Notes under the pieces: model-generated
Seen by the model: only the letters and a program-made list of their open reading frames with translations
The model's database searches: none
Told to the model about the DNA's origin: nothing
NCBI GenBank assembly: GCA_964608905.1
Contig: CAZSQE010000001.1
Location: forward strand, 1-30,982
From: an uncultured bacterium
GTDB taxonomy: Bacteria > Eisenbacteria > RBG-16-71-46
Reading direction: 5' to 3'
DNA: 30,982 nt
Program-made: the position numbers and the translations under genes
Shown here: in pieces, positions 13,227-30,608 of the stretch
How positions within the stretch are numbered: position 1 is the stretch's first letter
Layout: every line of letters begins with the position of its first letter

Positions 13227-13303
13227 TGGTGGCCCCGGCCGGAGTCGAACCGACGACACGCGGTTTAGGAAACCGCTGCTCTATCCGTCTGAGCTACGGG
13301 GCC
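13227..13303 (-). tRNA. tRNA-Arg(CCT), 77 nt, CCA encoded
   Basis: Acceptor stem GGCCCCG/CGGGGCC followed by ACCA; D-arm GCTC/GAGC; anticodon stem GCGGT-TTCCTAA-ACCGC; T-loop GGTTCGACTCC. Confidence 0.97.
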
Positions 13304-13309
13304 GTACGG

Positions 13310-13331
13310 CAGCAAGATAGCGCACTTTGCT
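13310..13331 (-). promoter_or_regulatory. Probable tRNA promoter region (-10 TATCTT), duplicated at 19136-19157
   Basis: The 22-mer cagcaagatagcgcactttgct is identical in both places and sits at the same offset from tRNA position 1. Confidence 0.65.
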
Positions 13332-13341
13332 GAGCGAGCAA

Positions 13342-13363
13342 ATCAAGCGGGCATCAAGCGGGC
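13342..13363. repeat. Tandem 11-bp direct repeat at a cassette end
   Basis: atcaagcgggc occurs at 13342-13352 and 13353-13363. A related catcaagc occurs at 19168-19175. Confidence 0.7.
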
Positions 13364-13513
13364 ACGCGGTCCATCAGACCGCGTGCCTCGCAGATCGCAT
13401 CCCGCACGCGGCCGGCAAACGGTGACAGCGCGCACCGACATAGTCAGCACCCACCGTGATCGGCGGGACTTCCTTGCCGCCTTTCGACTGATGTACACGG
13501 AGACGGGTCAAGC

Positions 13514-13696
13514 TCACACGACCGGACAACTAGGCTCGCTCGCAAGCGCCCTTTGCGAGTACCGGAGAGCCTCCCTGCCACGACGTTGACATGCTGCTAT
13601 CCAGCTGAGCCGGGTAAGGAACCAGTGGTGACCAGGACTGCGCTGCAGTTCGGCCAGGATGAGCCGCCGCGCTGCGGGCCATTTCCTTCGGTCCAC
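13514..13696 (-). pseudogene. Probable TPR-like gene remnant
   Basis: ARRLILAELQRSPGHHWFLTRLS...EALRYSQRALASEPSCPVV resembles a TPR helix pair, and two in-frame TGA stops follow closely. Confidence 0.35.
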
Positions 13697-13843
13697 CAGC
13701 TCAGCGAATCTGGCTTCCTTGGTCTCCGCAGCTACCGCCCACCTGCAATGGCTAGCCTCTCCGCCTCTCGCCTCACGGCCTCACACGCGGCTCCGTATGC
13801 CGTCCGAGCACCTGTCTCACATGCCCCTCCTCCAACCGCCCGG

Positions 13844-14344
13844 TCACGCGGCAGTGAGGGCGCTGCTCACGCCTCGCGGGGTGAGGACACAACGGCGACC
13901 AATCAAGACATAGATGAGCGGAAGACCCACCACCCTGAGCAGCGGAAGGGACAGCATTAGCCATACGTCGCCGGGATTCTCGTATGTGCGGTTCATGTGC
14001 GTCATGAAGAGCCTCATCAGGCGCGCGAGCTCAGGTACAACGAAGACGAGCACCACGCCGAGAAAGAGGAGGCTCGACACGGCAAGCGACCGCCCACCGA
14101 CGCCATCCGCTGCGACGTACCTGCGAAACACGTGGCTCCCGAGAACCGTCGCGCCTGCGATCAGAGACATCGAAACGACGGTGAGCAGGAGGGCGACCCA
14201 GTAGGGCTCGTCAGCTGACCCGCGCAGCGCAGCGTTCAAGGCATACCAGAGCAAGGTGTTCACCCCCAACGTGAGGACCCACCCAACTCCCAAGGCGGAC
14301 ATAAGCCCGACAACGAGAAAATGCTTCAGCGCCTGCGCGATCAT
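13844..14344 (-). CDS. Membrane protein of unknown function, directly downstream of the HEPN gene
   Basis: Four to five hydrophobic segments. ATG at 14344 follows GGGAGGGAG and lies 14 nt after the HEPN stop. Confidence 0.7.
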   Translation of the reverse strand: MIAQALKHFLVVGLMSALGVGWVLTLGVNTLLWYALNAALRGSADEPYWVALLLTVVSMSLIAGATVLGSHVFRRYVAADGVGGRSLAVSSLLFLGVVLVFVVPELARLMRLFMTHMNRTYENPGDVWLMLSLPLLRVVGLPLIYVLIGRRCVLTPRGVSSALTAA

Positions 14345-14358
14345 GCTCCCTCCCAAGG

Positions 14359-14742
14359 CTAGGAAGCCTGCCCGATGATTCGCGCAGCTTCGAGGACGAA
14401 CTCCCTCGCCTGGGCGATCACCGCCGTCGCCTCGTCGGCCGTGATGAGGGCGTCCACGCCGTAGTCCGCTTGGATCCGGACATCGAACGCGTCGAGCAGC
14501 CAGCGGTGGAAGCGGGCATCCAGCAGTCCCGGGCGCACCAGTTGCTCGCCGAGCGCGCTATGGACTGCGCTGTGCTTGCGGAAGTGAAGCCCCCGCTCGA
14601 ACAGGAGCGCTTCGGCCGCGTAGAGCATGGCGTAGTACGCGCGGCCTGCGGCGAAGTCCGATTCGTCCGCCTGCACGAGGGCCTCGGCGGCGTGAATCGC
14701 CCTCTCAGCCTTGCTGAGGAGACGGCGGCTCTCGCTCTTCAC
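14359..14742 (-). CDS. HEPN-domain protein (UPF0332-like), toxin partner of an MNT-HEPN pair
   Basis: GRAYYAMLYAAEALL...KHSAV...RIQADY (Rx4Y-type motif). The GTG start overlaps the MNT stop (GTGA). Confidence 0.88.
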   Translation of the reverse strand: MKSESRRLLSKAERAIHAAEALVQADESDFAAGRAYYAMLYAAEALLFERGLHFRKHSAVHSALGEQLVRPGLLDARFHRWLLDAFDVRIQADYGVDALITADEATAVIAQAREFVLEAARIIGQAS

Positions 14743-15059
14743 GCGGCGATGGCCTCCATCCGGGCGTTGGCGAGGAAGGGTGAATCACGCTCGATCCAGT
14801 CGCGCTCGGGGACCAGCACCCGACTGATGCTGAGGCCGGACTCCAGGGAGAGAGCCGAGATCAGCACACTCGTGCGGCGGACCTCGCCGAGGTAGCCGTC
14901 CACTCGATCGAGCACGATGATGACGTCCACGTCGGATTCGGCGTCTTCCTCCCCGCGGGCATAGGAGCCATAGAGGTACACCCCGCGCAGGCGCGCGGCG
15001 TACACCTGCTCAAGCTCCGCGCGAAGACGGGCCAGCAAGCCCTTGATCTTCTCGCTCAT
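14739..15059 (-). CDS. Minimal nucleotidyltransferase (MNT), antitoxin of an MNT-HEPN pair
   Basis: LYGSYARGEEDAESDVDV contains the GS...DxD motif. ATG at 15059 follows GGAGG. Confidence 0.9.
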   Translation of the reverse strand: MSEKIKGLLARLRAELEQVYAARLRGVYLYGSYARGEEDAESDVDVIIVLDRVDGYLGEVRRTSVLISALSLESGLSISRVLVPERDWIERDSPFLANARMEAIAA

Positions 15060-15325
15060 GGCGTCCTCCAGCTTGGACCGTGGTCTCGGTCCCCGCCTGC
15101 CCGGCAGTCTCGCTGATCCGAAGCAGGCCAAGCCTGTCCGGAACGTTGCTGCAGTCCAGCCTAGCACAGGACAGTGAGCAGGGCGGAGCCGAGTCGGGGT
15201 GGCCCGCCGGCGCGGCTTGCGCTACGGCCGCGGCGTCGGGGCGCCTCGCCTGAGTGGCTACGACCTTGGCTACGAGAACCGTATCAATCCATGTCCGCTC
15301 GTGTCCTCTCCTGTCCAGTCGAACT

Positions 15326-15362
15326 CGAAGCCCCCGCGCCGGCATCGGACGCGGGGGCTTCG
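15326..15362. terminator. Hairpin about 70 nt downstream of tRNA-half copy 2
   Basis: Perfect 13-bp inverted repeat cgaagcccccgcg / cgcgggggcttcg. Confidence 0.6.
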
Positions 15363-15429
15363 GGATGAGCGCTGTCCACAGCGACTTAGCGTGGTCTGTT
15401 CGAATTGCCCCGAGAATGGACCGGAGCGC

Positions 15430-15468
15430 TTAGGAAACCGCTGCTCTATCCGTCTGAGCTACGGGGCC
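15430..15468 (-). repeat. tRNA-Arg 5' half, copy 2 (first 39 nt, ending at A38), identical to the tRNA
   Basis: ttaggaaaccgctgctctatccgtctgagctacggggcc is identical to 13265-13303. Confidence 0.97.
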
Positions 15469-15519
15469 GTGGGTGTCATGCCGATTCGCTCGCAAGAAAC
15501 TGCACTAGTATCCACCGCT

Positions 15520-15993
15520 TCACTTCAGCTCCTTAGTGATGCCCTTGAGGCTCCACGCGATGACTCGGATCCCGTGCTTCTTGATCGCAGGCGGCAGTTT
15601 CCGTGGAAGGTCTCCCCCATGGACGCCGACCACCTTCTTCCCGAGTTTGACGCTCTCTTCAACCTCCCAATTCACCCACTCGCTGTTCGCTGTCTGGTCA
15701 GACACGTAGACAAGGGTCACGGACGACTGCCGGATGCGCTCGAGGATGCCCTTCCGGATGTAGTCGGCCCGCTCGCTGTCGAATGGCGCCCGCAGCGACC
15801 AATCATTGAAATTCAGTGCGCTACCTTCCTTCTGGGCCTGCCGACGTAACAGTTCGACCTGTGGCTTGTCTTCGTTGGTGAAGCTGATGAAGACGTTTCG
15901 GTTTGCGCCCGCCGGGGTATTCCGCTTCCTCGCCAGTACTCTCCGCCGTTTGAGAGCCGCAGGCGAAGGACGTTTGGCACTGGCACCGCCCAC
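15520..15993 (-). CDS. TIR-domain protein (MTH538/DUF1863, ThsB-like)
   Basis: NVFISF...IRQSSVTLVYVSDQTANSEWVNWEV retains the putative catalytic Glu. The GTG start overlaps the upstream TAG. Confidence 0.85.
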   Translation of the reverse strand: MGGASAKRPSPAALKRRRVLARKRNTPAGANRNVFISFTNEDKPQVELLRRQAQKEGSALNFNDWSLRAPFDSERADYIRKGILERIRQSSVTLVYVSDQTANSEWVNWEVEESVKLGKKVVGVHGGDLPRKLPPAIKKHGIRVIAWSLKGITKELK

Positions 15994-17282
15994 TATGGGC
16001 CTCTGCGCGCGCGGGCTTCGCGAATGAATCCCAGGTTCAGAGCCGTGGTCTCGGGCTCCCAGCTCTCGCGGACCGCTGCCAGCGCCGGCACGAGCGCATC
16101 TGCTGCCGCGGCCTCATCCCCACCCAGCACCGCCAGCTCCATGAGGGTTGCGTGGTCCCAGTAGTTCGGGTTGCCAGAGGTGAGCCGGCGCTTCACCGAG
16201 TACTTGACGACCGGAAGGATCTCTCGGATGCGGTCGTCGGACGGATCGCGCAGCTCCATCAGCGCGAGCGCGTTGATTCCCGGGTAGGCATCGCGCCAGT
16301 CAGCCTGGAACCCCCTCAAGTACGCATCGATCGCTTCGTCTAGAAGCGCTCTCGCCATTGTTGTGTTGCCGGCTTGGACGGCAGCATGCCAGCGGTCTTT
16401 GTACACACGGCCGAGGATGCCGAACGTCTCACTAGAAGGGCCGCGCCGCGAGACGAGCTGAAGCAGCACGAGTTCGGCATCCTCTCCCTGTCCGGAGCGA
16501 TTGAGGGCCAGAGCGAACTGCTCCTGCACCATCACGGATGCCTGCAGGGGCGGGGACATGAGGTCCCGTAGTCGAATCATGTCCTCCCAGGCCCCGATCG
16601 CGCGATAGGAGAGAAAGAGATCGATAACCACACCGACCTCTACGTCGGAGACGTCCCCCAGCTCAGCCTCGAGCGCACGCAGCGCCTCGAGACCGCCCTC
16701 ATTCAGGGTTCTCGCCCGCGCAAGACGCTCCCTCAATTCCTGGCTGTAACCCACTTGCTCGCGGAACAACTCCGCTCTTGAGCGATCCAGGTGTGGTGTC
16801 GGCAGACCTTCGACGAAGTGGAAGACGGGGCCATCGGCGTGAGTCGACCGAGCCGCGCTCAACGCGTCGGCGATCGCAGTTCGAGTGGTGTCGACATCCT
16901 GCGGCTGGCCGTCGGCTCCGAGCTGGTAGCGAATGCAGCGAAGGCCCTGCATTTCAAAGGGTAGGTGCTCACCTGGAGCGACGAGCAGCACGGTGCGTTG
17001 GGGGCGGACGGCATGTCGAGCGCCCAGCGCGTAGAAAGCATTGGTGCTGGCCACTGTCAGGTCCGCAAGCGCGTAGTGAGACAGAACCAGCCGCTCGATC
17101 ATCGGCTTGTGAATGACTCCGCCGAGGTCCTCCTGATCCACGAGGATGGCGTCGAGGCCAGCGTCCTTGATGGCGGGTGCGATCAGGTCGCGGTACACGC
17201 TGTCGAAGTCAATCCAATTGCCCGCCGCGCCTTGCCTGCGGCCGAGCGGCATCAGCACGAAGCACAACTCTTTCGACATCAT
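15993..17282 (-). CDS. DUF4071/MAP3K TRAF-binding-type TPR protein with an N-terminal nucleoside-deoxyribosyltransferase-like domain
   Basis: CFVLMPLG...DFDSVY..LIAPAI...ADLT...NAFYALGARHA, then LFLSYRAIGAWEDMI...QFALALNR...SSETFGILGRVYKDRW...YPGINA...YWDHAT. ATG-ATG start follows AGGAG. Confidence 0.8.
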   Translation of the reverse strand: MMSKELCFVLMPLGRRQGAAGNWIDFDSVYRDLIAPAIKDAGLDAILVDQEDLGGVIHKPMIERLVLSHYALADLTVASTNAFYALGARHAVRPQRTVLLVAPGEHLPFEMQGLRCIRYQLGADGQPQDVDTTRTAIADALSAARSTHADGPVFHFVEGLPTPHLDRSRAELFREQVGYSQELRERLARARTLNEGGLEALRALEAELGDVSDVEVGVVIDLFLSYRAIGAWEDMIRLRDLMSPPLQASVMVQEQFALALNRSGQGEDAELVLLQLVSRRGPSSETFGILGRVYKDRWHAAVQAGNTTMARALLDEAIDAYLRGFQADWRDAYPGINALALMELRDPSDDRIREILPVVKYSVKRRLTSGNPNYWDHATLMELAVLGGDEAAAADALVPALAAVRESWEPETTALNLGFIREARARRGP

Positions 17283-17469
17283 GGCTCCTATAGCCGGGTT
17301 CCTCGCTAGCACGGATTGCCCGTTCGCTCCGAGCGCCTCGAGGAATGCTCCCTGAAGTCAGGAGGGCAACTCGATTCCCTCGCCAGTTCCGCGCGATGGT
17401 GCTCCAGGGAGTGGTCCGAGTCAACAGTGATGAGGCGACGGGCTCTTGCACCCTTGTCTTCCGTGGTAG

Positions 17470-18384
17470 TTACGGCTTCGTGCTTCTCAGAACGACGAGC
17501 CTCGACTGGCGGACCTCGTTGTTGTCGGCCAGGAGATAGAGCCGCCCGAACGTGTCCTCGGCTATTCCTTCCAGAACCCCGAAGAGAGATGGGGACGTAC
17601 CCGAGTCCCGGCCCTCAAGGAGCGAGTCGATGGCCGCGTAGTTGATCCACTCCCGCGGTTTCGACTCCAGTCCCGGACGGTCGAGGAAGGGCTGCACCAT
17701 TCCGATCAGGCGCCGCTGGCGGTCGATCACGCTCACCGTCTTGCCACCGGGTCGGAACGCGGCACCCGATTGCGTCTGAAACGCCGGCGTCGAAAGAAGC
17801 GTACCGGAGGAGTCCGGAACCAGTCGGTATCCGAACGCGTCGGGTTCCAGCACCAAGAGTCGCGCATAGCTTGGCGCCGGCCGTTCCTTGAACAGGTAGA
17901 GTTCGACCCGGTCCCCGGCCGCGCGCCGGAGCGCCACCCCCTCCATGCCGCTATTCTCCACCGATTCCCCCGGAGGTGAAGCGATTCCCGAACGCGACAG
18001 GCGAAGCCCCTGGCCTTCAGGAACGAGCAGGTAGAACCAGGAAACCGGCGCGTCACCGGGACCGCGCTCCCCGGAAGCCGCCAGAGGGCCCGGCGCCGTG
18101 GCCGTAGGCGGCAGCCACAAGGTGACCCTCGAGGAGTCGGCGCCCACCACCGTGATCCCCGAGTAGTCGGCTCGATCCGAACCGACCGGAAGGACGTCGT
18201 ACACGGCCAGCACTTCGTGCCGGGAGAGGATCGGAACGAGCGGAACGCCGGCGCTGTCCCGCGGGACGGCGGAAGGCAGACGCTCCGCGTCCGACCTTTC
18301 GGCTCCAGCCGAACAGGAGCCGTCTCGAGCTGCGCCCTGACAGGCGAGGATGGGGAGACCCAGAACCGCCAGGAGCACCAGCAT
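17470..18384 (-). CDS. Putative lipoprotein of the esterase-like-phytase / beta-propeller type
   Basis: LPILAC lipobox-like motif; DYSGIT, NSGMEGVAL and LEGIAED...LYLLADNN motifs. Start codon uncertain. Confidence 0.6.
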   Translation of the reverse strand: MLVLLAVLGLPILACQGAARDGSCSAGAERSDAERLPSAVPRDSAGVPLVPILSRHEVLAVYDVLPVGSDRADYSGITVVGADSSRVTLWLPPTATAPGPLAASGERGPGDAPVSWFYLLVPEGQGLRLSRSGIASPPGESVENSGMEGVALRRAAGDRVELYLFKERPAPSYARLLVLEPDAFGYRLVPDSSGTLLSTPAFQTQSGAAFRPGGKTVSVIDRQRRLIGMVQPFLDRPGLESKPREWINYAAIDSLLEGRDSGTSPSLFGVLEGIAEDTFGRLYLLADNNEVRQSRLVVLRSTKP

Positions 18385-18999
18385 GGCGAGAAGAGTGCCG
18401 GCGTGGGCGGCAGAGCACGGTAGCGGGCGAGAGCCTGGCGGATCGCGAACAGCTCGGCCTCGGCCACGGTCATGATCTCTCCCCTGAAGCGACCCGGTCT
18501 CGCAGCCGCGGGATAACGACTCGCTCCAACGGGAGACGGTAGTACAGATCCCCGCGGAAGGCCCATCACCCCTTCGCTGGCACCGGGTAGTCGAGGATGA
18601 CGGGTTCAGCCGGACGGCTCAACCCGAGCCTGGTGCGCCAGCGTCCGCACCGCGCTCTTGAAGTTCGCCTGGATCTACCTTTCTTCGTGGAGCCCTTACC
18701 CCTATTGGGAGGGGTTCCACGACGGTCACGCAGACGGGCACGATTGGCCTCGCCCGGTCAAGTTCTGGCTACGGATCGAAGGACTGCTGGGTTCCTCTCC
18801 CGGCGGACGTCTGAAGCGCTGTCGCGTGAGTTTGAGCCCACGGCCCGAGCCGCTCGCCACGTCCACGCCGATCGTGCCAGGCAATCCGGTCGCCGATTGG
18901 TCAGAGACGACTAAGTCCGGATGCGTGGTAGCCGTTTGGTAGCCACGTCCCGGTCCACTTCCCTCCCGTCCTGACCACGCGAGTCCTCCAGAGACCAAG

Positions 19000-19029
19000 C
19001 GCCCCAGGAGGCGCTAACCCCCTGGGGCG
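19000..19029. terminator. Hairpin about 60 nt downstream of tRNA-half copy 3
   Basis: cgccccagg (19000-19008) pairs with cctggggcg (19021-19029). Confidence 0.5.
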
Positions 19030-19090
19030 GCTGGAACTTCTTGGCGGCGATGGTGCTACGGCGTGAGGGCTGTGGAACCTGTGGGGGAGC

Positions 19091-19129
19091 TTAGGAAACC
19101 GCTGCTCTATCCGTCTGAGCTACGGGGCC
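19091..19129 (-). repeat. tRNA-Arg 5' half, copy 3 (39 nt, identical), with the duplicated promoter region
   Basis: Exact 39-nt match to the tRNA, followed by the shared 22-mer at 19136-19157. Confidence 0.97.
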
Positions 19130-19240
19130 ACGCGACAGCAAGATAGCGCACTTTGCTCAGCGGGAACATCAAGCAGAGCAGCGGCCTAGTGCGACCGGGA
19201 TCGTCCGCACTCAAGTCCAGGCAGGATAGACGGCCCCACC

Positions 19241-21535
19241 TCAGAGGTTCATCTTGCGCAGAAGGGCCTGGTAGCGGGCGTCGCTGCGCGCCGGCTCCAA
19301 GAACGGATAGGTCTTGATCGGCATCACTAGCGGGTCACGGGTGTCGATGGCCTTGTCGAGCCACTCAAACGCGGCATTCCAATCACCCAGGCCGATGTGG
19401 CCGAACGCGAACGTCGAGGGGGGGACGTAGGCGGACCTGGCAGCTTCGGCCGCACGCTCCAGCAGCGCGCGCGCGTCGTCGGCACGGCCGGCCCGCCCGT
19501 AGGCAAAGGCCAGGAATCCGAGCGTGAATGGCGAGCCCCTCGACAACTCGTGCGCCCTCTCCAGCGCCGCGACCGCCTCCGTTCGCGCGCCAATCGTGTC
19601 CCGATGCATGCCGAGCGTCCAGTAGCCCAGAAAGTGGTCGGGATCAAGAGCAATCATGTGCTGCGCCTCGTCGTTCACAGAATCCAGGCGGCCGGCCAGC
19701 AGGGCCATTATGGAGAGCCACCAGCGGGTATGGACCGACAGCGGATCGATGCGCACGATGCCCTCGATCTCGGCCATCGCCTCGGCGGCTCGGCCGTGGG
19801 GCAAGAGGCCGCTGATCGCGTGGCGCAACTTCACGAGCGGCGACTCGGGGTTCAGCTCCAGGGCGCGACGGAGCTCGCGGTCGACCTCGGGCCAGTTGTA
19901 GTCAAGCTCCTTGCGAAGCATGCCGAGGAGCGCGTGCGTCTCGGCCAGCGTGTCATCCAGCTCCAGCGCGCGCAGAGCATGCCAGATGCTGGTGGAAAAG
20001 GCGTCGCGCGGGGGCACGTTGCCGAAGAAGCCCAGGAACCAGTACAGCTCTGCCATCGAGTCGTGCGCAACCGCGAAAGATGGATCCCGTTGGAGGGCAC
20101 GCTCGTAGCACGCCATCGCCTTCGCCAGGGCCTCGGGTGTCCCCCTTGCGAAGTGGTGGCGGCCTTCAAGGAATGCAGTGTAGGCCTCGGAATCGACGGC
20201 CGGCCGCCTTCGCGCGCCGCCGTCCCGGGCCAATTCACCCCGGAGCCGCTCGGCGACCGCTGCCGCGACGTCGTCCTCGAGGACTAGCAGGTCGGTCACC
20301 TCGCGATCGTAGCGCTCGCTCCACAGATGAGACCCGTCCCGCGTTGAGACGAGCTGCGCCGTCACGCGCACATGGGAGTGAGCCCGGCGCACGCTTCCCT
20401 CGAGGATGCTCTCGACGCCGAGCCGTGCTCCGGCCTCGCGCACGTCGAGGCCGAGGCGCCCGACCGCGAAGGAGGAGGTACGGGCGATCACGCGCAGCCC
20501 GCGAATCTGCACGAGCGCGTTGATGATCTCCTCGGCCAGACCCTCGCAGAGGTAATCATCTTCACGTGCGCCGCCAATGTTCGCGAAGGGCAGCACCGCA
20601 ATCGTCCTATCCTCTGACCGGGCGACTCCCGAGCGGAGGGCTTCCTGGCTGCGCATGGCCGCGCGTGTTGGAGCGGTCGAGCTGGCTGACGCTGTGTTGC
20701 GCTCGGACGCCCGCAGCCCGTCTGCGAACTGCGCCAACGATGCAGCACGATCCGCCGGGATCTTGGCCAGCGCCTGCTGCAGCGCCTCGGCCACCGTCGC
20801 CGGCACCACCGGCCGCAACTCCGTCACCGGCCGCGGTGTCACGTTCAGATGCTGGTGCAGCAGGCTCGCCGCTGTCGGTCCCGCGAACGGAGGAGCCCCC
20901 GCTAGCATCTCGTAGAGAACGCAGCCCAGGCTGTAGAGGTCCGAGCGGCCGTCGAGATCCTGACTCCCCGCCGCCTGCTCAGGGCTCATGTAGGCCGGTG
21001 TGCCCACCACGATGCCAGCCGCCGTCAGATTCTCCCCTCCCGCGGCGGCCACCACACGCGCGATTCCGAAATCGGCCACCACCGCGTGGCGGCCCTCGAG
21101 CAGGATGTTCTCGGGCTTGATGTCGCGATGGACCACATCATGGCTGTGCGCGTAACTCAGCGCGTCAGCCACCTCGCGGGCGATCTGGAGCGCGTCCTCC
21201 AGCGGGAGCTGCTTCTCCCGGGCCAGCCTGCAGCGCAGCGAGTCGCCTTCCACGTAAGGCATGACGTAGAAGAGCAGCCCGTCGGCAGCCCCGGAGTCGT
21301 GGAGCGGCAGGATGTGTGGGTGGGTGAGCCGCGCGACGGTTTCAATCTCGCGCAGAAAACGCTCGGGGCCGACTGCAGCCGCAACGTCAGGGTCGAGCAC
21401 CTTGATGGCCACGCGGCGGTGGTGCTTGAGGTCCTCGGCGAGGAACACCGTGGCCATGCCACCCTGGCCGAGCGCGCGCTCGATCCGGTAGCGGTCGGAG
21501 AGGGCATCCTGCAGGCGCTGCGACGGGTCGGGCAA
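19241..21535 (-). CDS. Hanks-type Ser/Thr protein kinase with a TolB-like (IAVLPF) domain and TPRs
   Basis: LGQGGMATV, VAIK, HRDIKPEN, DFG and GTPAYMSPEQ, then IAVLPFANIG...YLCEGLAEEIINAL and TPRs. TTG start follows GGAGG. Confidence 0.93.
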   Translation of the reverse strand: MPDPSQRLQDALSDRYRIERALGQGGMATVFLAEDLKHHRRVAIKVLDPDVAAAVGPERFLREIETVARLTHPHILPLHDSGAADGLLFYVMPYVEGDSLRCRLAREKQLPLEDALQIAREVADALSYAHSHDVVHRDIKPENILLEGRHAVVADFGIARVVAAAGGENLTAAGIVVGTPAYMSPEQAAGSQDLDGRSDLYSLGCVLYEMLAGAPPFAGPTAASLLHQHLNVTPRPVTELRPVVPATVAEALQQALAKIPADRAASLAQFADGLRASERNTASASSTAPTRAAMRSQEALRSGVARSEDRTIAVLPFANIGGAREDDYLCEGLAEEIINALVQIRGLRVIARTSSFAVGRLGLDVREAGARLGVESILEGSVRRAHSHVRVTAQLVSTRDGSHLWSERYDREVTDLLVLEDDVAAAVAERLRGELARDGGARRRPAVDSEAYTAFLEGRHHFARGTPEALAKAMACYERALQRDPSFAVAHDSMAELYWFLGFFGNVPPRDAFSTSIWHALRALELDDTLAETHALLGMLRKELDYNWPEVDRELRRALELNPESPLVKLRHAISGLLPHGRAAEAMAEIEGIVRIDPLSVHTRWWLSIMALLAGRLDSVNDEAQHMIALDPDHFLGYWTLGMHRDTIGARTEAVAALERAHELSRGSPFTLGFLAFAYGRAGRADDARALLERAAEAARSAYVPPSTFAFGHIGLGDWNAAFEWLDKAIDTRDPLVMPIKTYPFLEPARSDARYQALLRKMNL

Positions 21536-21565
21536 GGGGCAGCCTCCGGACCACTGTGCCCGGGC

Positions 21566-21577
21566 AATCTAGCACAG
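21566..21577 (-). promoter_or_regulatory. Extended -10 promoter element of the kinase gene
   Basis: CTGTGCTAGATT about 30 nt upstream of the start; identical to 10026-10037. Confidence 0.55.
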
Positions 21578-21597
21578 GTTCTGACCGGCGCCACCGC

Positions 21598-21624
21598 CCC
21601 AGATGGCGTGGCCCAGATGGCGTG
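21598..21624. repeat. 13-bp direct repeat pair at a cassette end
   Basis: cccagatggcgtg occurs at 21598-21610 and 21612-21624, 37 nt from tRNA-half copy 4. Confidence 0.75.
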
Positions 21625-21661
21625 CAGTTGGCCCGCCCAGGGTGCTACCGCCGGCCAGACC

Positions 21662-21698
21662 AGGAAACCGCTGCTCTATCCGTCTGAGCTACGGGGCC
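21662..21698 (-). repeat. tRNA-Arg 5' half, copy 4 (37 nt, ending at T36, identical)
   Basis: aggaaaccgctgctctatccgtctgagctacggggcc. A TG-TAAGAT-like -10 lies upstream on the minus strand near 21717-21724. Confidence 0.96.
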
Positions 21699-22063
21699 AC
21701 TGATTGAGCTGCGGCATCTTACAGCAAACAGGCCGAAGGGCTCACGCGCTCCTGGGTGACGGTTGGGTGATCCGCGGTACCTGCACTCGCCGCCGCAGGA
21801 GCCAGTGCACGGTCACCGGGTCGAAGCCGACGACCCCGTCGCCCGACTGGCCCGTGGCGAGGCTCGATGTCACTTCGCCGGCGGGCCAACCGCCGCCCCC
21901 CCTTGCTCCTTCCCCCCCGGTTGGCGTAAGAACTGCCTCGGGACGGGCAGGATGCTCGGACTCTGCGATCCTTCCGCGGCCCGTGGCCCGCGCAGTACCT
22001 CCGCGCGGACGTTTCACGTCGTTCAGGCACTCGCGTCACCCGGCGCGAGAAGAGGAGGTCCCG

Positions 22064-23158
22064 GTGTTCAAGAAGGCCGTGTTCCCGGGCAAGTACATTC
22101 AGGGCGTCGGCGCCATCGGCGAATTGCCCTCGCTGATCCGGCGGTTCGGTGGGCAAGGGCTGGTCCTGGCCTCGCCGTCCGTGAAGTCCGGGATCCTGCC
22201 CGGATGCGGTCTCGCGCTGGGCGAGGAGACCATCGGGGTCGAGGAATTCAACGGCGAGTGCTGCGAGGAGGAGATGGCGCGGCTGGCGGGCATCATCCGG
22301 CAGAGGAACGTGCGTGTGCTGGTCGGCATGGGCGGCGGCAAGACCATCGACACGGCGAAGATCGCCGCCGACCGGGCCGGCATCACGGTGATCGTCGTTC
22401 CCACCATCGCCTCGACGGATGCGCCGTGCAGCGGGTGCGCCGTGATCTACTCCCGGGAGGGCGTCTTCCAGTCGGTGTGCTACCAGAGGATGAACCCGGC
22501 TGCGGTGCTCGTAGATCTAGAGATCATCGCGGCGGCGCCGACGCGCTTCCTGGTGGCCGGGATGGGCGACGCGCTATCCACCTGGTTCGAGGCCCGCTCC
22601 TGCGACCGCACCCGGTCGCCGAACGAGTGCGGCGGGACCTCGACCGTCGCCGGGCTCCAGATCGCCCGGCTCTGCTACGAGACGCTCCTGGCCGACGGAG
22701 TCGCCGCGAAGGCCGCCAGCGAGGCGCGTGTAGTCACCCCGGCGTTGGACCGCATCGTCGAGGCGAACACGCTCCTGAGCGGCCTGGGGTTCGAGAGCGC
22801 CGGGCTGGCCTCCGCCCACGCCATCCACAACGGGCTCACCGCCCTGCCGGAGACCCACGCCTTCTACCACGGCGAGAAGGTGGCCTTCGGTGTGTTGGCC
22901 GGGCTTCAGCTCACCGACTCGAGCCCGGACGAGTCGGCTGCGGTCTTCTCGTTCTGCGAGGACATCGGCCTCCCGACGAGGCTCATGGACATCGGCCTCG
23001 GCGACGCCAGCCGGGAGCACCTCCTGAAGGCGGCAGAGGCATCCTGTGCCCCCGGTCAACCGATTCATCACGAGCCGGGCGTGATCACTCCCGAAAGGGT
23101 CCTCCACGCCATGCTCGCGGCGGACGCAATGGGCAGGGCCAGACGCACGGGTGCGTGA
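22064..23158 (+). CDS. gldA: Glycerol dehydrogenase
   Basis: GTG at 22064 follows AGGAGG. Motifs PGKYIQG, GGGKTIDTAK, PTIASTDAPCS, GMGDALSTWFE, LSGLGFESAGLASAHAIHNGLT and HGEKVAFG. Confidence 0.92.
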   Translation: MFKKAVFPGKYIQGVGAIGELPSLIRRFGGQGLVLASPSVKSGILPGCGLALGEETIGVEEFNGECCEEEMARLAGIIRQRNVRVLVGMGGGKTIDTAKIAADRAGITVIVVPTIASTDAPCSGCAVIYSREGVFQSVCYQRMNPAAVLVDLEIIAAAPTRFLVAGMGDALSTWFEARSCDRTRSPNECGGTSTVAGLQIARLCYETLLADGVAAKAASEARVVTPALDRIVEANTLLSGLGFESAGLASAHAIHNGLTALPETHAFYHGEKVAFGVLAGLQLTDSSPDESAAVFSFCEDIGLPTRLMDIGLGDASREHLLKAAEASCAPGQPIHHEPGVITPERVLHAMLAADAMGRARRTGA

Positions 23159-23535
23159 TCTGCACGACGCCCACGGGCCATGCGTACCGGGGCGTTGCGC
23201 AGGCTCCCTGCCCGGGGGCTGCCACAGAGCCGAATCCGCGGGCAGCTAGCTAGCCCTGCGGGACGGAAGAACTACCGCGCAACCGCGAGCGCAGACCCAG
23301 GTGGCGGAGGTTCCCCGCACCGCACGTCTCCTCCAACGGAATCGAGGATATCCCGCGAGCCCGTCGACTCCGCTTGGCTTTCCTCGTCGTCGATTGGCCG
23401 CCGAGTCAGGGTCCTCTCCCATCCCTTCCTGTCCATTCCTGACCACAAGACGAAGCCCCACTCGCGGCACCAACCGCAAGCGGGGCATTGCGTGACATGG
23501 ACTTTGGTGGACAGGCTCATCTTGCCCGTGACGTC

Positions 23536-23574
23536 TTAGGAAGCCGCTGCTCCATCCGTCCGAGCTGCGGGGCC
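23536..23574 (-). repeat. tRNA-Arg 5' half, copy 5 (39 nt, four mismatches)
   Basis: ttaggaagccgctgctccatccgtccgagctgcggggcc. In tRNA sense the changes are T8C, A14G, A21G and T31C. Confidence 0.92.
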
Positions 23575-23763
23575 ACGGGCAGGGGACCATGGCCTCTCAT
23601 TTCGACTTCCGCAAGCCACCTCCGCTGTACGTCCGGCGATCACCACCACTGCGTCGCGCGAGCGGAGTCTGCGCACCACGGCGCGGCCGATCCCGTCTGC
23701 GGCACCAATGATGAGGAACGCGCCTGCCGCAGCGAGGCTCAGGGTGTTCGTGTCGGAAGTCAT
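23536..23763 (-). pseudogene. Truncated short-chain dehydrogenase (N-terminal Rossmann segment only)
   Basis: LIIGAADGIGRAVVRRL...VVIAGR. The ATG overlaps the PP2C stop (ATGA). Similarity fades after about 48 codons and the frame ends at the TAA inside tRNA-half copy 5. Confidence 0.65.
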
Positions 23764-24974
23764 GGGATGTTCACGGCTGAAGGGTCAAGGGTCGTACGCT
23801 CGATCGCCAGCAGCGACACATCGTCCTTGGGCGAACCTCGGCACCAGTCCGTCACGGCGGATGCGATGTGGTCAATCCCCGCGCGCAGCGGGAGATCGCG
23901 AACCTGCCCGATCTCGGAGATCAGGCGTTCCAGGCCGAACTCGTTCCCGGCTGCGTCGCGGGCTTCGACGACGCCGTCCGTGTAGAAGTAGAGGCGGTCG
24001 CCAGCTTCCATGGTCAGGCGCTCGGACTCGTACCGGGTGTCTTCGAGCATGCCGACCGGTCGCCCTCCGCCTGCGACCGGTGCCGGCGGACCTCCTCGCG
24101 GCATGAGCACGGGCGGGGGATGACCCGCGACGACGTACTCGATCACGCCGGTTCCGGGGGCGGCGATTCCGTAGATCAGCGTGAAGTACTGCTGGGTGCG
24201 ATCCATCGGAAACTGGCGGTTCAGGCGTTCCGCGATGCGGGTGGGCGGCACGCTGACCGCCGTTTCGCCCAGATTCTCGGTGACGAGCGCCCCTTCTCCG
24301 GGCGTCAGCAGGTGCGCCAGCGTGAAGGACAGCAGGGATGCCGCGACGCCATGGCCGCTGACGTCCAGGATGTAGATCCCGATCCCACCATCCGGCAAAG
24401 GCACGATGCCGACCGCGTCACCGGCGAGGTCATCGCAGGGATGGAAGGCATGAGCGAGAAGGAAGGTGCCGGCACGCACCTCCGGCGGAGGCAGCAACGA
24501 CCTCTGGACGCGGGCAGCCAGCCTCAGATCTTCCTCGAGCGCCTGCTTCGAGCGCCGCAGTGCTTCTTCGGTCTGGCGGCGTGCCGTCACGTCCGACTGA
24601 ACGCCGATGAAGTGCGTCAGGCGGCCGGCCGTGTCGCGTACCGGCGTGATCGACAGCCGGTTCCAGAACGGCACGCCATCCCTGCGGTAGTTCAGGATCT
24701 CGACAACACACTCGCGGCCGGCGTTCAATGCGGCTCGGATCTCGTCCGCCGCGGCGGGATCCGTGTCCTTCCCCTGGAGGAATCGACAGTTGAGGCCGAT
24801 CGCCGCGGAGGCGGTGTAGCCCGTCATCCGCTCGAAGCCGCGATTCACGTAGATCAGGGGCCGACCCGGCTTCTGCGCATCGGCGATGGTGATGCCCTCG
24901 GCCGCGACATCCAGGGCGCGGTCCTTGAGTGTCAGCCAGTCGGAGAGCTTGCCGTCGGGTGGGAGTGCCGTCAC
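23760..24974 (-). CDS. LOV-domain SpoIIE/RsbU-type (PP2C) phosphatase
   Basis: GLNCRFLQG, NYRRDG.PFWN and FIGVQ (LOV). ARVQRSLLP, GDAV, DVSGHGV, FYTDGVVE and DDVSLL (SpoIIE). GTG start follows GAGGA. Confidence 0.92.
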   Translation of the reverse strand: MTALPPDGKLSDWLTLKDRALDVAAEGITIADAQKPGRPLIYVNRGFERMTGYTASAAIGLNCRFLQGKDTDPAAADEIRAALNAGRECVVEILNYRRDGVPFWNRLSITPVRDTAGRLTHFIGVQSDVTARRQTEEALRRSKQALEEDLRLAARVQRSLLPPPEVRAGTFLLAHAFHPCDDLAGDAVGIVPLPDGGIGIYILDVSGHGVAASLLSFTLAHLLTPGEGALVTENLGETAVSVPPTRIAERLNRQFPMDRTQQYFTLIYGIAAPGTGVIEYVVAGHPPPVLMPRGGPPAPVAGGGRPVGMLEDTRYESERLTMEAGDRLYFYTDGVVEARDAAGNEFGLERLISEIGQVRDLPLRAGIDHIASAVTDWCRGSPKDDVSLLAIERTTLDPSAVNIP

Positions 24975-25176
24975 GTGTTCCTCGTCGCTGAGTCAGGGTC
25001 GTGTTCTCCGGGCGGGCGTTCCGTTCGCCGCCGAAGACGGCTCTGGAAGAGGCTGAGCAAAGGTACTCCATTCCTTACGCGGAGGACATGGGTCTCCTCT
25101 CGCGTCGCGCGTACCCCGCCCTTGCCGTACCGGCGACTCGCCGCGGCCGGCCTCTCCCCCGCGGGCCCAGCGCTCC

Positions 25177-25956
25177 TCAGAACCGGCGCTCGATCCCCAC
25201 CACGGCGTAATGGAGCCACGCGAACGTGTAGACCTCGTCCACGTCGGCGCCGCCCTCGACCGTGCGGTAGCCCGCGGTCAGGGTCCACGCGTCGCCGAGA
25301 TCGCGGCCCAGCGTGAGTGCGACGTCCTCGGCGCGGCCCGGTCCGCCCGCCAGCGCGTCGGCGTCGAGGCCCAGCTGCCAGCTCGGCGCGAAGCGCCACT
25401 CGCCCGCGACGTGCAGCAGCGGCACGAAGCCGAGGTCGGTCTTGCGGCTCGTGACGGTGCCCTGGACGAGTTCGATCTTCGCGTCGCGCACCTTGGCGGT
25501 GAATCCCGTCCACCACGTCCAGCGCGCGCCCTCGTGCAGTCGGTAGCGGTAGGAAAGCCGGTACGAGTTGAACTGGTACGTCGCCTCGACGGGCACGCCG
25601 GGCGCATAGGCGGCGCCGGCGAAGTCGATCGTCCGGCCGGGGATGCCGGTCTCAATGATCGAGAACGGCGCCGCCAGCACGCGGAGCGCATGCCGCTCGC
25701 CGGTGCGCCACGTGAGGTAGGCGCGGCCCGCGGGCCACGGTCCGGAACCTGCGAGGTCGCAGAGCGTGAAGCGGGTCCCCGAGGCATCGTTCGGGATCTG
25801 CACGTCGTTGAGGCTCTGCCACGCTGGGCCGCCCTCGATCCGCACGGTGAAGCGGGGCGCCTCCGTGGCGCGGGCCACTGGGGCGGGACAGGCGCCGGCG
25901 AGGCAGGCAACGCTCAGCGCCAGCGCGGGGGCTGCGGGAAGCCGAAAAGCGTTCAT
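25177..25956 (-). CDS. Putative outer-membrane beta-barrel protein
   Basis: ATG at 25956 follows GGAGGG. Signal peptide, amphipathic strands (YRLSYRY, LHVAGEWRF, LTAGYR) and a C-terminal Phe. Confidence 0.7.
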   Translation of the reverse strand: MNAFRLPAAPALALSVACLAGACPAPVARATEAPRFTVRIEGGPAWQSLNDVQIPNDASGTRFTLCDLAGSGPWPAGRAYLTWRTGERHALRVLAAPFSIIETGIPGRTIDFAGAAYAPGVPVEATYQFNSYRLSYRYRLHEGARWTWWTGFTAKVRDAKIELVQGTVTSRKTDLGFVPLLHVAGEWRFAPSWQLGLDADALAGGPGRAEDVALTLGRDLGDAWTLTAGYRTVEGGADVDEVYTFAWLHYAVVGIERRF

Positions 25957-26008
25957 GGGGTCCCTCCGGGTGACGCCTGCCACTCGGCCTCGGTCGGCCG
26001 GCATGGGG

Positions 26009-26407
26009 CTATCTCTTCTTCGGCCCTGCAGGAAGCTCGCAGGCGGCGTCCGCACAGCGGCCGGTGAGTCGGAGCCGGTTCTTCGCGAACCAGCGGTAGC
26101 CGAGGTCGAGCAGTTGCGCGATGCCGGGCAGGCGTGTCGGTGCGACAAGAACCCCGAACCCCGCCGCGGTGTAGAGGCGACGAAACACCTCGACCCCTTC
26201 GACCAGAGTGCCGTCGGGCAGCCGGCCATGGATGCGGTCCATGAGGGCCTCCATCGTCACGCCGACGGAAGCGGCGTCGAACGCCTCCTCCGCGATGTCG
26301 ACGAAACGGATGCGCTGCCGCCTGTCGAGCCGGCGAAGCACCCTGACCTCGTGCCTGCAGAGCGGACAGCGGCCGTCGTAGAACGCCTCGATGTCGAAGG
26401 TGGTCAT
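26009..26407 (-). CDS. DCC1-like thiol-disulfide oxidoreductase (DUF393)
   Basis: FYDGRCPLC (DxxCxxC)...IRFVDI...Y.WFAKNR. Confidence 0.88.
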
Positions 26408-26485
26408 GTCCGATCGTCCATGGCTCTTAGACGACGATCCCATCCGAAAGGATTCGAGAACGCCAGCCGGACACCCGCCTCGCGG

Positions 26486-27211
26486 TCACGCCAGCTCCAG
26501 GTCGAACTCCGGCGGGCCGACCGTGACGATACCCAGGTGCCCATCGATCGTGATCACGTCACCGTCGCGAAGCTGCTCCACCGCGCGGTCGGCCTCCGGG
26601 CTGCGCGGATCGCGGTTGAAGGCCACGCCCGAACACTCCGCCAGCTCCACGGCCTGGACGAGCACCGCCATCCGGCTCCGGTGCGGGTCGAGCGACAGCT
26701 CGCGTCGGTAGAGGAGCGCAGCATCCGACCACAGCGAGGCCCAGACCGCCCGCACCGCATCGAGGACGGCGTGATCCCCCTCCAGCCCGACGAAGGAGTC
26801 GTGGAGCCCGGCAAAGGACGACTGCCGCGAGTCCTCCCCGGGCGCCGACGAGCGAACGGCCACGGCGCCGTCGCCGACGTGGTCCGCCAGGGCCCGGCGG
26901 ATCTGCGCGGCGATCGCTTCCGGGATCCGGGTGCGCAGGAAGGCGGATCGGATCCGCAGCGCGGCGTCCCACAGTTCCTCCCACCGCATGGCGTCCAGGG
27001 GCTTGCGGCCCAGCTCCATCGCGATGTGCCCGCTCAGGCTGGCGTCGGCGACGAACCGTTCGTACGCCCTCGTCGTGATGCAGAATCCCCGGGGAACCCT
27101 GAATCCCGCCTGGATGAGCGAGCCGAGCCTGGCCGCCTTGCCGCCGACCAGCCTGTCTCCCGCAGCGGCGGCCCCGGCCAGGGGGACTATGCACGACGCC
27201 TGGGAACCCAC
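26486..27211 (-). pseudogene. PEP-utilising enzyme (PPDK/PEP synthase N-terminal-domain family) with a large in-frame internal deletion
   Basis: VGGKAARL, VPRGFCITT, VAVRSSAPGED, SFAGLHDS, MAVLVQ and SGVAF...DP are joined directly to the extreme C-terminal segment of the mobile domain (LRDGDVITIDGHLGIV). The phospho-His segment is missing. Confidence 0.75.
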
Positions 27212-27690
27212 TGCCGGACCTCTTGGAAACGGGTGACGTGAAGGTACCGCGCGATGTCGAGGCGAAACAGACCGCTGGAGTCGGCGCGGACGAAGGTGTC
27301 GAGGTAGGGGTGCCGGTCGATGAGCAGGCGGGACCAGCGCTCGAACTCCGGTCCCGTCGCCACTTCGTGCGCGCGGCCGGTCGCCGTCACGGCTTCGACG
27401 TCCATGAGCCGGCCGGGAAGCGCCGAGCGGTTGTCGACGACGAGCGCCACGTGGGCGCACGCGGAGAGCAGCCGGTACTTCCTGGTGGCCTTCTGCGTCG
27501 CGAAGAACGCTGCATCGAGGTCAGGGGTCATGGCGTACGCCACCAGCGAACCGTACGGTTGCCCCTCGCCCTGCGTGCACAATACCCCGTACGGCTGGCC
27601 GTCGAGGAGCCGCCTGATGGTCCTGTCGAGGTCTTCACCCGGACCACGGTCCGGGGCGGCCTCGCCCGCGATTTCGTCGGGTACGCGCAT
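27187..27690 (-). CDS. Pyridoxamine 5'-phosphate oxidase-like FMN-binding split-barrel protein
   Basis: GVLCTQGEGQPYGSLVAY...FATQKATRKYRLL...VALVVDNR. Confidence 0.85.
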   Translation of the reverse strand: MRVPDEIAGEAAPDRGPGEDLDRTIRRLLDGQPYGVLCTQGEGQPYGSLVAYAMTPDLDAAFFATQKATRKYRLLSACAHVALVVDNRSALPGRLMDVEAVTATGRAHEVATGPEFERWSRLLIDRHPYLDTFVRADSSGLFRLDIARYLHVTRFQEVRQWVPRRRA

Positions 27691-27777
27691 GTTTTTCCCC
27701 CGCCCTCTCTGCGGCTCCTGTCGAATCCTGCGACACGCCGAGTGTGGGGCGGCCAGCGGCGGCGCGGCGGCTGCCGC

Positions 27778-28233
27778 TCAGCCGGCCCGGCCCGCGAACA
27801 AGGCATTGCACTCCGGTTCGAGCACGCCGCCGATGATCGTACAGACCCACCCCGGGCTGCGGCGCACCACCTCCTCGGAGAGGATGTCGATCTGCCGCCA
27901 GCCCTGCTGCTGCAGGAAGCGGATCGACGAGCCGAACACCACCGTGCCGATGCCGCTCCAGAGGATGGCCGCCAGGCACATGGGGCACGGCTCCGCGGTC
28001 GTGTAGAGGACGAGGCCGGATTCACCTCCGCCGCGACCGGATTCGGCGAGGCGGTTGATGGCGTCGATCTCCCCGTGCCACGTCGGGTTGATCGCCGACT
28101 TGTTCCACCCCTCCGCCACCACCTCACCCGTATCGGCGCGGACGATCAGGGCGCCGAAGGGCAGACGGGGACAATGGGCGGTCAGCGCGATGGCCCGACG
28201 CATGAAGCGTTCGTGATCGAGGGATGGCATCAC
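27778..28233 (-). CDS. Zinc-dependent nucleoside/nucleobase deaminase (cytidine deaminase fold)
   Basis: HGE...PCPMC zinc motifs; PFGALIV. Confidence 0.9.
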   Translation of the reverse strand: MMPSLDHERFMRRAIALTAHCPRLPFGALIVRADTGEVVAEGWNKSAINPTWHGEIDAINRLAESGRGGGESGLVLYTTAEPCPMCLAAILWSGIGTVVFGSSIRFLQQQGWRQIDILSEEVVRRSPGWVCTIIGGVLEPECNALFAGRAG

Positions 28234-28464
28234 TCGGCGATGGTACCAGATGGCGGCCAGTCGCGCGGTTCAGGCACTCGGTCAGCCGGGTATTCGTGGG
28301 TCTTCCGCCGCGTCTGGTGCCGATGCTCGTGCGGGTCTCATGGATCCAGCAGGCAGTGCATCGTTCACCCCACCCGCGAGTCCGAAGGACCCGGGCAGCG
28401 AGTTGTCCGGAGAAGCCGGGCCGGTTCCGCCCCGCGGTGCTCTGGCGCGCGTTGCGATCCCCGC

Positions 28465-29604
28465 CTACCGGCCGCCGCCCAGCAATCCGCGCTGGCGCGC
28501 GACGAAGGCCGCGAAGTCAGTGCCGGCAGGCGTTGTGTGCCAGAGGGCGACCTCGTCGATGCCCAGGAAGCCGGCCTTCCTGAGCGACTCCATGCTCTTC
28601 GCCTTGAGCGCATGGGCAGCCCGGAGCGTCTGGTTCAGTCGCGCGGTCGCCGACTCCGTCGCAGGAGACGGGGCGCCCGCGTCAAATGCCTCGCTCAGCA
28701 CCCGCCCCATCGACCCCGAGGGTGCCGGGCGCCCCGTCAGGGAGGCGATGGTCGGGGCCACGTCGTAGATCTCGCAATGCGGCGCGGTCCGCCCTTCCAC
28801 CACGCCCGCCCCCACGACCACCAGGGGTGTGACGCTCGACCCCGTGCTGTAGGGCTCGTGCCAGCCTTCGTCGGCCTGGCCATGATCACCGCAGACCAGC
28901 AGAACCGCGTCCTTCCACAGGTCCTGTTCCTTCAACCACTGCACGAACTCGCCCAGATGCCCGTCGGCGCGTTCGCACGCCATGCGGTACGGGGACTCCG
29001 CGTGCCAGATGTCCCGGTACCATGGCTCCTTGGCGTACTGGCTCCTGCTGACCTTGTCGCCCTCGATGCCGGCGCGCTGCAGGTGCACGCGCATGAAGAC
29101 GGGCTTCTTCTCGAGCAGGACCTCCTTCGCCCGCTCGATGACCCAGGCGTCCGGGTTGTGCGGTCCTGCCAGGTAGACACCGAAGCCCCCGCTCACGTCC
29201 TTGTATGAATAGGCGTTCACGACGAATGCGGTCTGCGCTTCCTCGAACTGATGCTGGATCATCGCCGTCCGGATACCGTCGGTACCGATGAACGGCGTGC
29301 CCGCCATGAGCATGGGATTCGGCATGGAGCACGACCACGGATACCGCGGATCGTTCTTCGGATGCCCGGGCAGCGGCAGGTGCATCGCCTCGTACCGGCA
29401 CCCCTCCCCCGCCAGACGCAGAAGGTTCGGCATCGAGAAGCGTTCCGGCGCCCGCGCCGCCAGGCCGTCGATCACGAATAGAATGACGCGCTGCGCCCGC
29501 GGGGTCGTCACCTTCCCTGTCCCGGTCCCCCCGCGCGCCCCGGGCGCGTGAGGTCCTGCGAGCAGACAGCACGCCAGCACCCACGCGATTCGCCATCGCG
29601 TCAT
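28465..29604 (-). CDS. Secreted alkaline-phosphatase-superfamily (phosphodiesterase/sulfatase-like) enzyme
   Basis: ATG at 29604 follows GAGG. Signal peptide, VILFVIDGL, SCSMPN, LVCGDHGQ, and PLVVVG...DVAPTIA. Confidence 0.8.
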   Translation of the reverse strand: MTRWRIAWVLACCLLAGPHAPGARGGTGTGKVTTPRAQRVILFVIDGLAARAPERFSMPNLLRLAGEGCRYEAMHLPLPGHPKNDPRYPWSCSMPNPMLMAGTPFIGTDGIRTAMIQHQFEEAQTAFVVNAYSYKDVSGGFGVYLAGPHNPDAWVIERAKEVLLEKKPVFMRVHLQRAGIEGDKVSRSQYAKEPWYRDIWHAESPYRMACERADGHLGEFVQWLKEQDLWKDAVLLVCGDHGQADEGWHEPYSTGSSVTPLVVVGAGVVEGRTAPHCEIYDVAPTIASLTGRPAPSGSMGRVLSEAFDAGAPSPATESATARLNQTLRAAHALKAKSMESLRKAGFLGIDEVALWHTTPAGTDFAAFVARQRGLLGGGR

Positions 29605-29696
29605 GGTCACCTCCGGCGGTGGAGTCTCATCGAGTCGAGCGACCGCATGCGACACCTGGCTTCCCGGGACTCGGCCGCGTTCCGGGAGAGGCGATG

Positions 29697-30575: not shown

Positions 30576-30608
30576 GGCTGGCTCCCCTCAAGGTGCGAAA
30601 CCGCGTGA

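Follow-up and report, generated by a model that had tools for sequence, protein, structure and literature searches.

The 30,982-nt window analysed here, which is positions 1 to 30,982 of contig CAZSQE010000001.1 from an uncultured bacterium of the Eisenbacteria lineage RBG-16-71-46, carries a single tRNA-Arg(CCT) gene, preceded on its upstream side by four directly repeated copies of the gene's 5' half. Very probably these copies are attachment (att) junctions that arose as small integrative elements inserted, one after another, in the anticodon loop of the tRNA gene; the units in the window are devoid of an integrase. Tandem islands at tRNA genes are known, and the array is a variant of them. 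Its breakpoint is textbook knowledge; the new point is a second dyad, found at a class of enzyme-less unit ends denoted class B. The backbone of the array comprises the following features:

13227-13303, minus strand: intact tRNA-Arg(CCT) (copy 1), the current attR and the target of the next insertion
13265-13271, minus strand: 7-nt anticodon loop flanked by the anticodon stem dyad, the putative strand-exchange overlap as judged from the intersection of 5' and 3' fragments
15430-15468, minus strand: copy 2, tRNA 5' half to A38, an attL-type junction
19091-19129, minus strand: copy 3, tRNA 5' half to A38
21662-21698, minus strand: copy 4, tRNA 5' half to T36
23536-23574, minus strand: copy 5, tRNA 5' half to A38, with four transitions

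The tRNA gene is 77 nt long with the anticodon at nt 35, so that standard position A38 is nt 39. As the preliminary description had reported, copies 2, 3 and 5 match the tRNA up to nt 39 (A38) and then read G where the tRNA has A, and copy 4 matches over 37 nt and ends at T36. The same break in three of four copies has a chance probability of ~0.002 if 50 possible positions are assumed. As in tRNA-borne genomic islands, the fragments are direct, lie on the correct side and end at the loop. The units between the copies measure 1.9-3.7 kb, and the GC content within the array is 63-69%, down from about 75%. In Logan contigs of the source study, depth is even over every cassette, and the contigs break at the repeats; the cassette order rests on the assembly and is not independently verified because the repeat is longer than the assembly word.

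Related genomes were searched in sets of 61 and 89, and the same 5' fragments were widespread (no claim draws on the unpublished genome G038). When homologous tRNA-Arg(CCT) 5' fragments were tabulated, as the preliminary description had proposed, the breaks were not scattered: the change point lies at nt 36-44 in 65/65 distinct fragments from relatives, in 30 of them exactly at nt 39, and per-position identity drops from 0.88 at nt 39 to 0.15 at nt 40. In five loci, fragments of the 3' half located downstream of the tRNA begin with the first base of the loop; one of these carries a loop substitution. As the 5' and 3' fragment sets overlap in the 7-nt loop only, we infer that the loop is the overlap of this integrase class, and the fragment ends suggest that strands are cleaved at the edges of the loop. 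That the tRNA 5' region was duplicated by random segmental events, for which nothing speaks beyond the presence of direct repeats, is refuted by the confinement of the breaks and by the linkage of an integrase and arm sites, and we regard it as extremely improbable. The earlier claim that the breakpoints stem from site-specific recombination and not from random duplication is thus borne out by the clustered breaks, the 3' fragments that start on the opposite side of the loop, and the existence of a cognate tyrosine integrase and arm-type sites.

One tyrosine integrase family is associated with these fragments; in many relatives its gene lies upstream of the tRNA or a 5' half, points at it and stops 10-1300 bp short of it. 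The cognate integrase matches PF00589 and phrog_1. Its structural model displays three N-terminal strands and a helix, with full-length lambda Int as the best fold match (pTM 0.45, so that the domain packing is uncertain), and the predicted fold suggests the presence of an N-terminal arm-binding domain. Upstream of the integrase are excisionase-like helix-turn-helix (HTH) genes (phrog_66) and, in some elements, a gene for a rolling-circle Rep (PF23343, phrog_3419). Autonomous relatives outside the window combine all three (integrase, excisionase-like gene and Rep), the set that characterizes an integrative and mobilizable element or a small integrative plasmid. The integrase lies inside the island in class A and class C elements of the relatives; the window units retain a 3' remnant only, and there is no tyrosine recombinase gene on the contig.

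The att arms follow a common plan. In most fragments the P' arm consists of a GC hairpin, GGAC-type repeats with a 10-bp period and then a 7-8 bp direct repeat pair at +130 to +156, and the same repeat pair is seen ~100 bp upstream of the tRNA start at integrase-bearing (class A) ends. Arm-type repeat pairs therefore flank the core, as in other anticodon-loop islands. By analogy to lambda-type systems, the arm parts would represent a terminator, excisionase sites and arm-type sites. In the window, P' arms are present in cassettes 1, 2 and 4 and absent in cassette 3:

15255-15429, minus strand: P' arm of cassette 1, with hairpin (15327-15361), 10-bp-period GGAC repeats (15292-15316) and arm-type repeat pair (15255-15275)
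18843-19090, minus strand: P' arm of cassette 2, with hairpin (19001-19028) and repeat pair (18926-18944); 82% identical to an arm of G003 over 251 bp
21540-21661, minus strand: left end of cassette 3, without a recognisable P' arm and a singleton in arm clustering
23383-23535, minus strand: P' arm of cassette 4, with hairpin (23455-23486) and decayed repeat pair (23384-23402); 86% identical to an arm of G019 over 153 bp

The preliminary description had further taken the G shared after A38 as pointing to a common attP core. A common attP architecture does exist, but 55-175 bp into the arm; the G itself is not a core signature because the next base varies in relatives. There it is T in 15, G in 12, A in 10 and C in 7 of 44 copies that end at A38, and G accounts for 12/34 of the bases other than A (p=0.73 against composition). 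Within the window the shared G lies in the range of chance (P(all three same, given not A) = 0.14; P(GGG) = 0.06), and the three arms open with three different sequences, each common to other genomes, in two arm clusters. In a metagenome set, which is rich in a few arm families, G follows the core in 13/20. At the adjacent position, A37 (tRNA nt 38) reads G in 12/65 of the relatives' junctions, often with the arm still in register, possibly a tolerated overlap mismatch that locks cassettes in. An IS110-family insertion sequence (IS) with subterminal inverted repeats (IS1111-like) was observed at the CT of the anticodon loop, which it duplicates, in att junctions of five or six genomes (L035:12244-13700, L045, L085, L113, L072); in L035 and L045 the arm resumes in register behind it.

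In the mechanism that we propose, a lambda-like tyrosine integrase would bind the anticodon stem dyad and exchange strands over the 7-nt loop, with cuts at the putative loop-edge positions, on an attP site ordered as P arm, promoter, tRNA 5' half, loop and P' arm. Each insertion would restore the tRNA behind the promoter of the element and shift the previous promoter and 5' half further upstream, where they adjoin the P' arm; arrays would thus grow on their 5' side. Autonomous members, which occur in relatives, encode Rep, the excisionase-like HTH protein and the integrase and carry cargo. The four window cassettes would be deletion or module-swap derivatives that keep their att arms, comparable to cis-mobilizable elements (CIMEs), and they probably move only when an autonomous relative supplies the integrase. 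Consistent with CIMEs, the window units have no integration or transfer genes, retain attL and attR, and stand in tandem with related elements, the lost arm of cassette 3 being the exception. Copy 4 is probably the product of a secondary deletion of that arm starting after T36, because cassette 3 lacks an arm that the homologous kinase cassette of G019 keeps in full. An IS110 insertion was rejected as the cause, as cassette 3 contains no IS.

Copy 5 was rejected as the outer edge of the island, since the DNA past it matches cassette cargo elsewhere. The lower-GC DNA runs on beyond copy 5 (23575-30982), and a segment of it (25167-26004) is 88% identical to class B cassette cargo in L113; older cassettes with lost junctions therefore probably follow there. 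An age gradient over the arrays was likewise rejected: mismatches plotted against rank in relatives show no trend (rho -0.22, p 0.34, n=20), so the decay of copy 5 alone is no proof of order.

Right ends were sorted into classes by promoter sequence. Class A ends have an integrase upstream in 21/37 cases, the arm pair in 22/46 and a dyad in 3/46 (background 10%). Class B ends, to which window copies 1 and 3 belong, have an integrase in 0/36, the arm pair in 0/38 and a second dyad in 30/38. The corresponding window features are:

13304-13362, minus strand: class B replacement tRNA promoter module of cassette 1, its function predicted from consensus, with -10 box (13314-13323) and an 11-bp duplication (13343-13364)
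13363-13385, minus strand: second core-like dyad, in which a 9-bp inverted repeat reproduces the anticodon stem arms and encloses another 7-nt spacer
13735-13866, minus strand: remnant of a cognate integrase gene, some 15-30 codons of its decayed 3' end
19130-19199, minus strand: class B promoter module in cassette 3; its dyad (19176-19199) is degenerate and fails the 2-mismatch test
23586-23614, minus strand: class A promoter beyond copy 5, arm pair lost, of the type seen at integrase-bearing element ends

The second dyad repeats the anticodon stem dyad, but its 7-nt spacer is another one and varies; it is located about 95 bp from the real core. Its position is fixed at -68 or -67 in 24/33 cases, its flanks are conserved (0.82-1.0) relative to mid-spacer (0.36-0.45), and each half resembles one of the two natural attB half-sites. 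The window dyad at 13363-13385 is the only strong match in the genome besides the tRNA itself; a role as general host operator was rejected in the absence of another strong site. Metagenome loci picked by dyad plus tRNA start all had a class B promoter and no integrase (17/17, on short contigs), and a strict phylum-wide search with the dyad pattern returned only five loci, all already known. Cargo and promoter modules reassort near the dyad; for example, L040 and L109 share a 98% identical promoter side and carry unrelated cargo. Class B ends were rejected as simply the native promoter, because A and B ends occur at all ranks; the native tRNA promoter was looked for and not identified. A 3'-type integrase-less cassette (L185:13100-13180) also has a second dyad, about 75-80 bp from the core (one case). 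We found no paper that describes the second dyad and none that links Eisenbacteria, integrase and tRNA.

In integrons, the direct repeats of attI sites are additional binding motifs for the recombinase close to the core. The DR1 and DR2 motifs of TnpI in Tn4430, to which the dyad can be likened, are extra recombinase-binding motifs near the core that shape the synapse (PMC2847244); in contrast to these, the candidate extra site described here consists of two inverted halves separated by a 7-nt spacer and lies about 95 bp away from the core. By this analogy, the class B dyad may bind the integrase as an accessory site that replaces the missing arm repeats, a tentative proposal that we prefer to its rivals and to which we give slightly less than an even chance.

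Several integrases of this family lack the N-terminal domain. They form a monophyletic sister clade (support 100/99), possibly a sedentary helper. Their genes are convergent with tRNA-Arg(CCT) and located 0.1-8 kb downstream of it, mostly without a distal tRNA fragment within 6-40 kb (L055, L057, L061, L069, L077, L079, L082, L087, L098, L183-L185). At L077, 3.5 kb separate two complete tRNA-Arg(CCT) genes; a truncated integrase follows each of them, and an arsenic-resistance-like operon lies in between. Such an integrase was considered as the helper of the source genome and was not found there with the query used.

It has to be weighed whether class B is an active, non-autonomous family kept for a purpose, in which the attB dyad copy with its non-matching spacer replaces the arm-type sites and is required as an accessory or crossover site. 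Cassettes would then be shuffled in trans by a lambda-like integrase from an autonomous element or by the truncated, sedentary integrase downstream, yielding an integron-like platform on a tRNA gene in which each cassette provides the tRNA promoter. The strict mutual exclusion of dyad and arm pair, the fixed dyad position, the reassortment of modules at the dyad, the intact P' arms of integrase-less cassettes and the well-supported sister clade, mostly without distal att fragment, all agree with this idea. However, the dyad spacers vary and mismatch the inner dyad of their own cassette, which makes a homology-dependent crossover at the dyad unlikely and led us to reject inner and outer dyads as a matched crossover pair. 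Moreover, the truncated integrase does not track class B ends, no minimal empty cassette was seen, and cassette 1 carries an integrase remnant, as expected of a decayed element. This remnant, found at 1/38 class B ends, is the sole window match to the C-terminal hidden Markov model (E=0.0013), with a DNA alignment score of 56 against a median of 28. We consider such a dedicated family rather doubtful.

Alternatively, the dyad could be a regulatory or decoy site, where binding of the integrase beside the -35 box would serve to repress or sense the replacement promoter, or would draw the enzyme away from the true att site and so stabilise the cassette. The dyad abuts the promoter at a fixed distance, conserved flanks around a variable mid-spacer are the pattern of a binding site without strand exchange, and the resemblance of its halves to the attB half-sites fits as well. 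Left unexplained are the restriction of the dyad to ends without arm repeats and the similar half-site that follows the arm pair in 13/33 P' arms, away from tRNA promoters. We regard this possibility as improbable.

The cassettes carry the following cargo:

13844-15167, minus strand: cassette 1; nucleotidyltransferase (14739-15167) and HEPN (14359-14742) genes forming an MNT-HEPN type pair, and a membrane protein; the first 1071 bp are 81% identical to a G007 cassette at another array position
15520-18384, minus strand: cassette 2; ThsB-like TIR (15520-15993), MAP3K_TRAF_bd/TPR-S protein (15993-17312) and an open reading frame (ORF) of unknown function
19241-21535, minus strand: cassette 3; Ser/Thr kinase with TPRs, 70% identical to G019 cassette cargo
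21704-23158, plus strand: cassette 4; iron-containing alcohol (glycerol) dehydrogenase, true start probably near 22065

The coupled ThsB-like TIR and MAP3K_TRAF_bd/TPR-S genes of cassette 2 (15520-17312) are a candidate anti-phage pair. Some class B cargo is common to different genera at 91-94% identity; because this exceeds the 86% of rpoB, it suggests recent movement. In a further explanation, all cassettes would be immobile relics of one-off autonomous islands that lost their integrase by deletion, and any later spread would be due to homologous recombination alone, between the 40-110 bp repeats. Truncated integrases are indeed frequent upstream of class A ends in relatives, the arm pair of cassette 4 is decayed and the arm of cassette 3 lost, and conversion could exchange promoter modules. 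Immobility is difficult to reconcile with the fact that integrase-less cassettes of different genera conserve arm pairs, hairpins and the dyad, and that the same cargo stands at different array ranks in different genera; we judge it somewhat unlikely.

Several observations weigh against the reading of the copies as junctions of repeated integrase-mediated insertion. The cognate integrase was not found in the source genome (86% complete). No excised circle, empty site or depth difference was seen in the contigs of the source study, which cannot resolve excision. Among 70 fragments (relatives, window copies included), 20 first differ at nt 38; five of the early breaks are due to an IS110-family element inserted at the loop's CT, and the remaining differences at nt 38 may be tolerated overlap mismatches, drift or deletions. 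Sharing between genera rests on contigs of metagenome-assembled genomes that are possibly mis-binned, and the class A and B counts come from related sequences, so that the Fisher p-values overstate the significance.

The 7-nt anticodon loop is the classic overlap of one class of tyrosine integrases (PMC8371274). Islander type A islands (PMC4383910, PMC8371274) share with the window system the 7-nt loop overlap, the stem core dyad, the restored tRNA and a displaced fragment at the far end, and with the system of the relatives the lambda-like integrase with paired arm-type repeats. Unlike most of them, the window system replaces the 5' half and promoter, an orientation that is known but rare, as a 5' fragment occurs in 159/3919 Islander islands (PMC4383910); the window units also have no integrase, so the Islander filter would reject them. 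In pTN3-like archaeal elements the attB is likewise the tRNA 5' half and the restored tRNA is expressed from an element-borne promoter (PMC8371274), whereas the system described here has a bacterial lambda-like enzyme, a dedicated sigma-70-like promoter in most elements and arrays of enzyme-less units. CIMEs and tandem accretions such as ICESt1/ICESt3 (PMC5704250) and the Dehalococcoides ssrA islands (PMC3146451) resemble the array in having tandem units at one tRNA-type gene, many without integration genes and with att ends kept, and enzyme-less units that keep both ends fit the CIME definition given for them (PMC5704250; PMC3146451). They differ from it in that here growth is on the 5' side, units span 0.7-13 kb and a distinct right-end module contains a second core-like dyad. 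With integrons the array shares polarity, small, often single-gene, enzyme-less cassettes, defence and toxin-antitoxin cargo, and junctions targeted by IS1111-type elements (attC in integrons). Unlike integrons, it has no tyrosine recombinase (IntI) with attI beside it, at its junctions a tRNA gene carries att arms of the lambda type (no search with an attC model was made), and each unit has its own promoter.

The same integrase family is also seen beside other tRNA genes, in the 5'-replacing layout at tRNA-Ser(TGA) and tRNA-Lys(TTT) and in the opposite layout at tRNA-Trp and tRNA-Pro (L133, L134, L135, L128, L137); on the integrase tree these members require three layout switches. At class C ends (L055, L067, L069, L070) the integrase gene stops some 11-17 bp short of the tRNA; its coding sequence includes the arm pair, and a separate promoter is lacking, as in pTN3. 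The source genome further contains 3' fragments of tRNA-Leu(TAA) and tRNA-Cys (G000 C49:3519-3579 and C134:5689-5715), which mark ordinary 3'-type islands. Unrelated to the array, an ORF at 265-1107 of the window contains six 141-nt repeats, an NHL-repeat-like beta-propeller as judged by their period.

From the array and its relatives, the parts of this rare 5'-replacing integrase system of an uncultured phylum can be listed in full: enzyme, overlap, arm repeats and both att types. Judging from the predicted promoters, expression of the host tRNA would depend on the promoter of the newest cassette. Should the second dyad enable arm-deficient cassettes to use a lambda-like integrase, this would show a way in which dead island remnants turn into reusable cassettes and would account for arrays that island finders discard.

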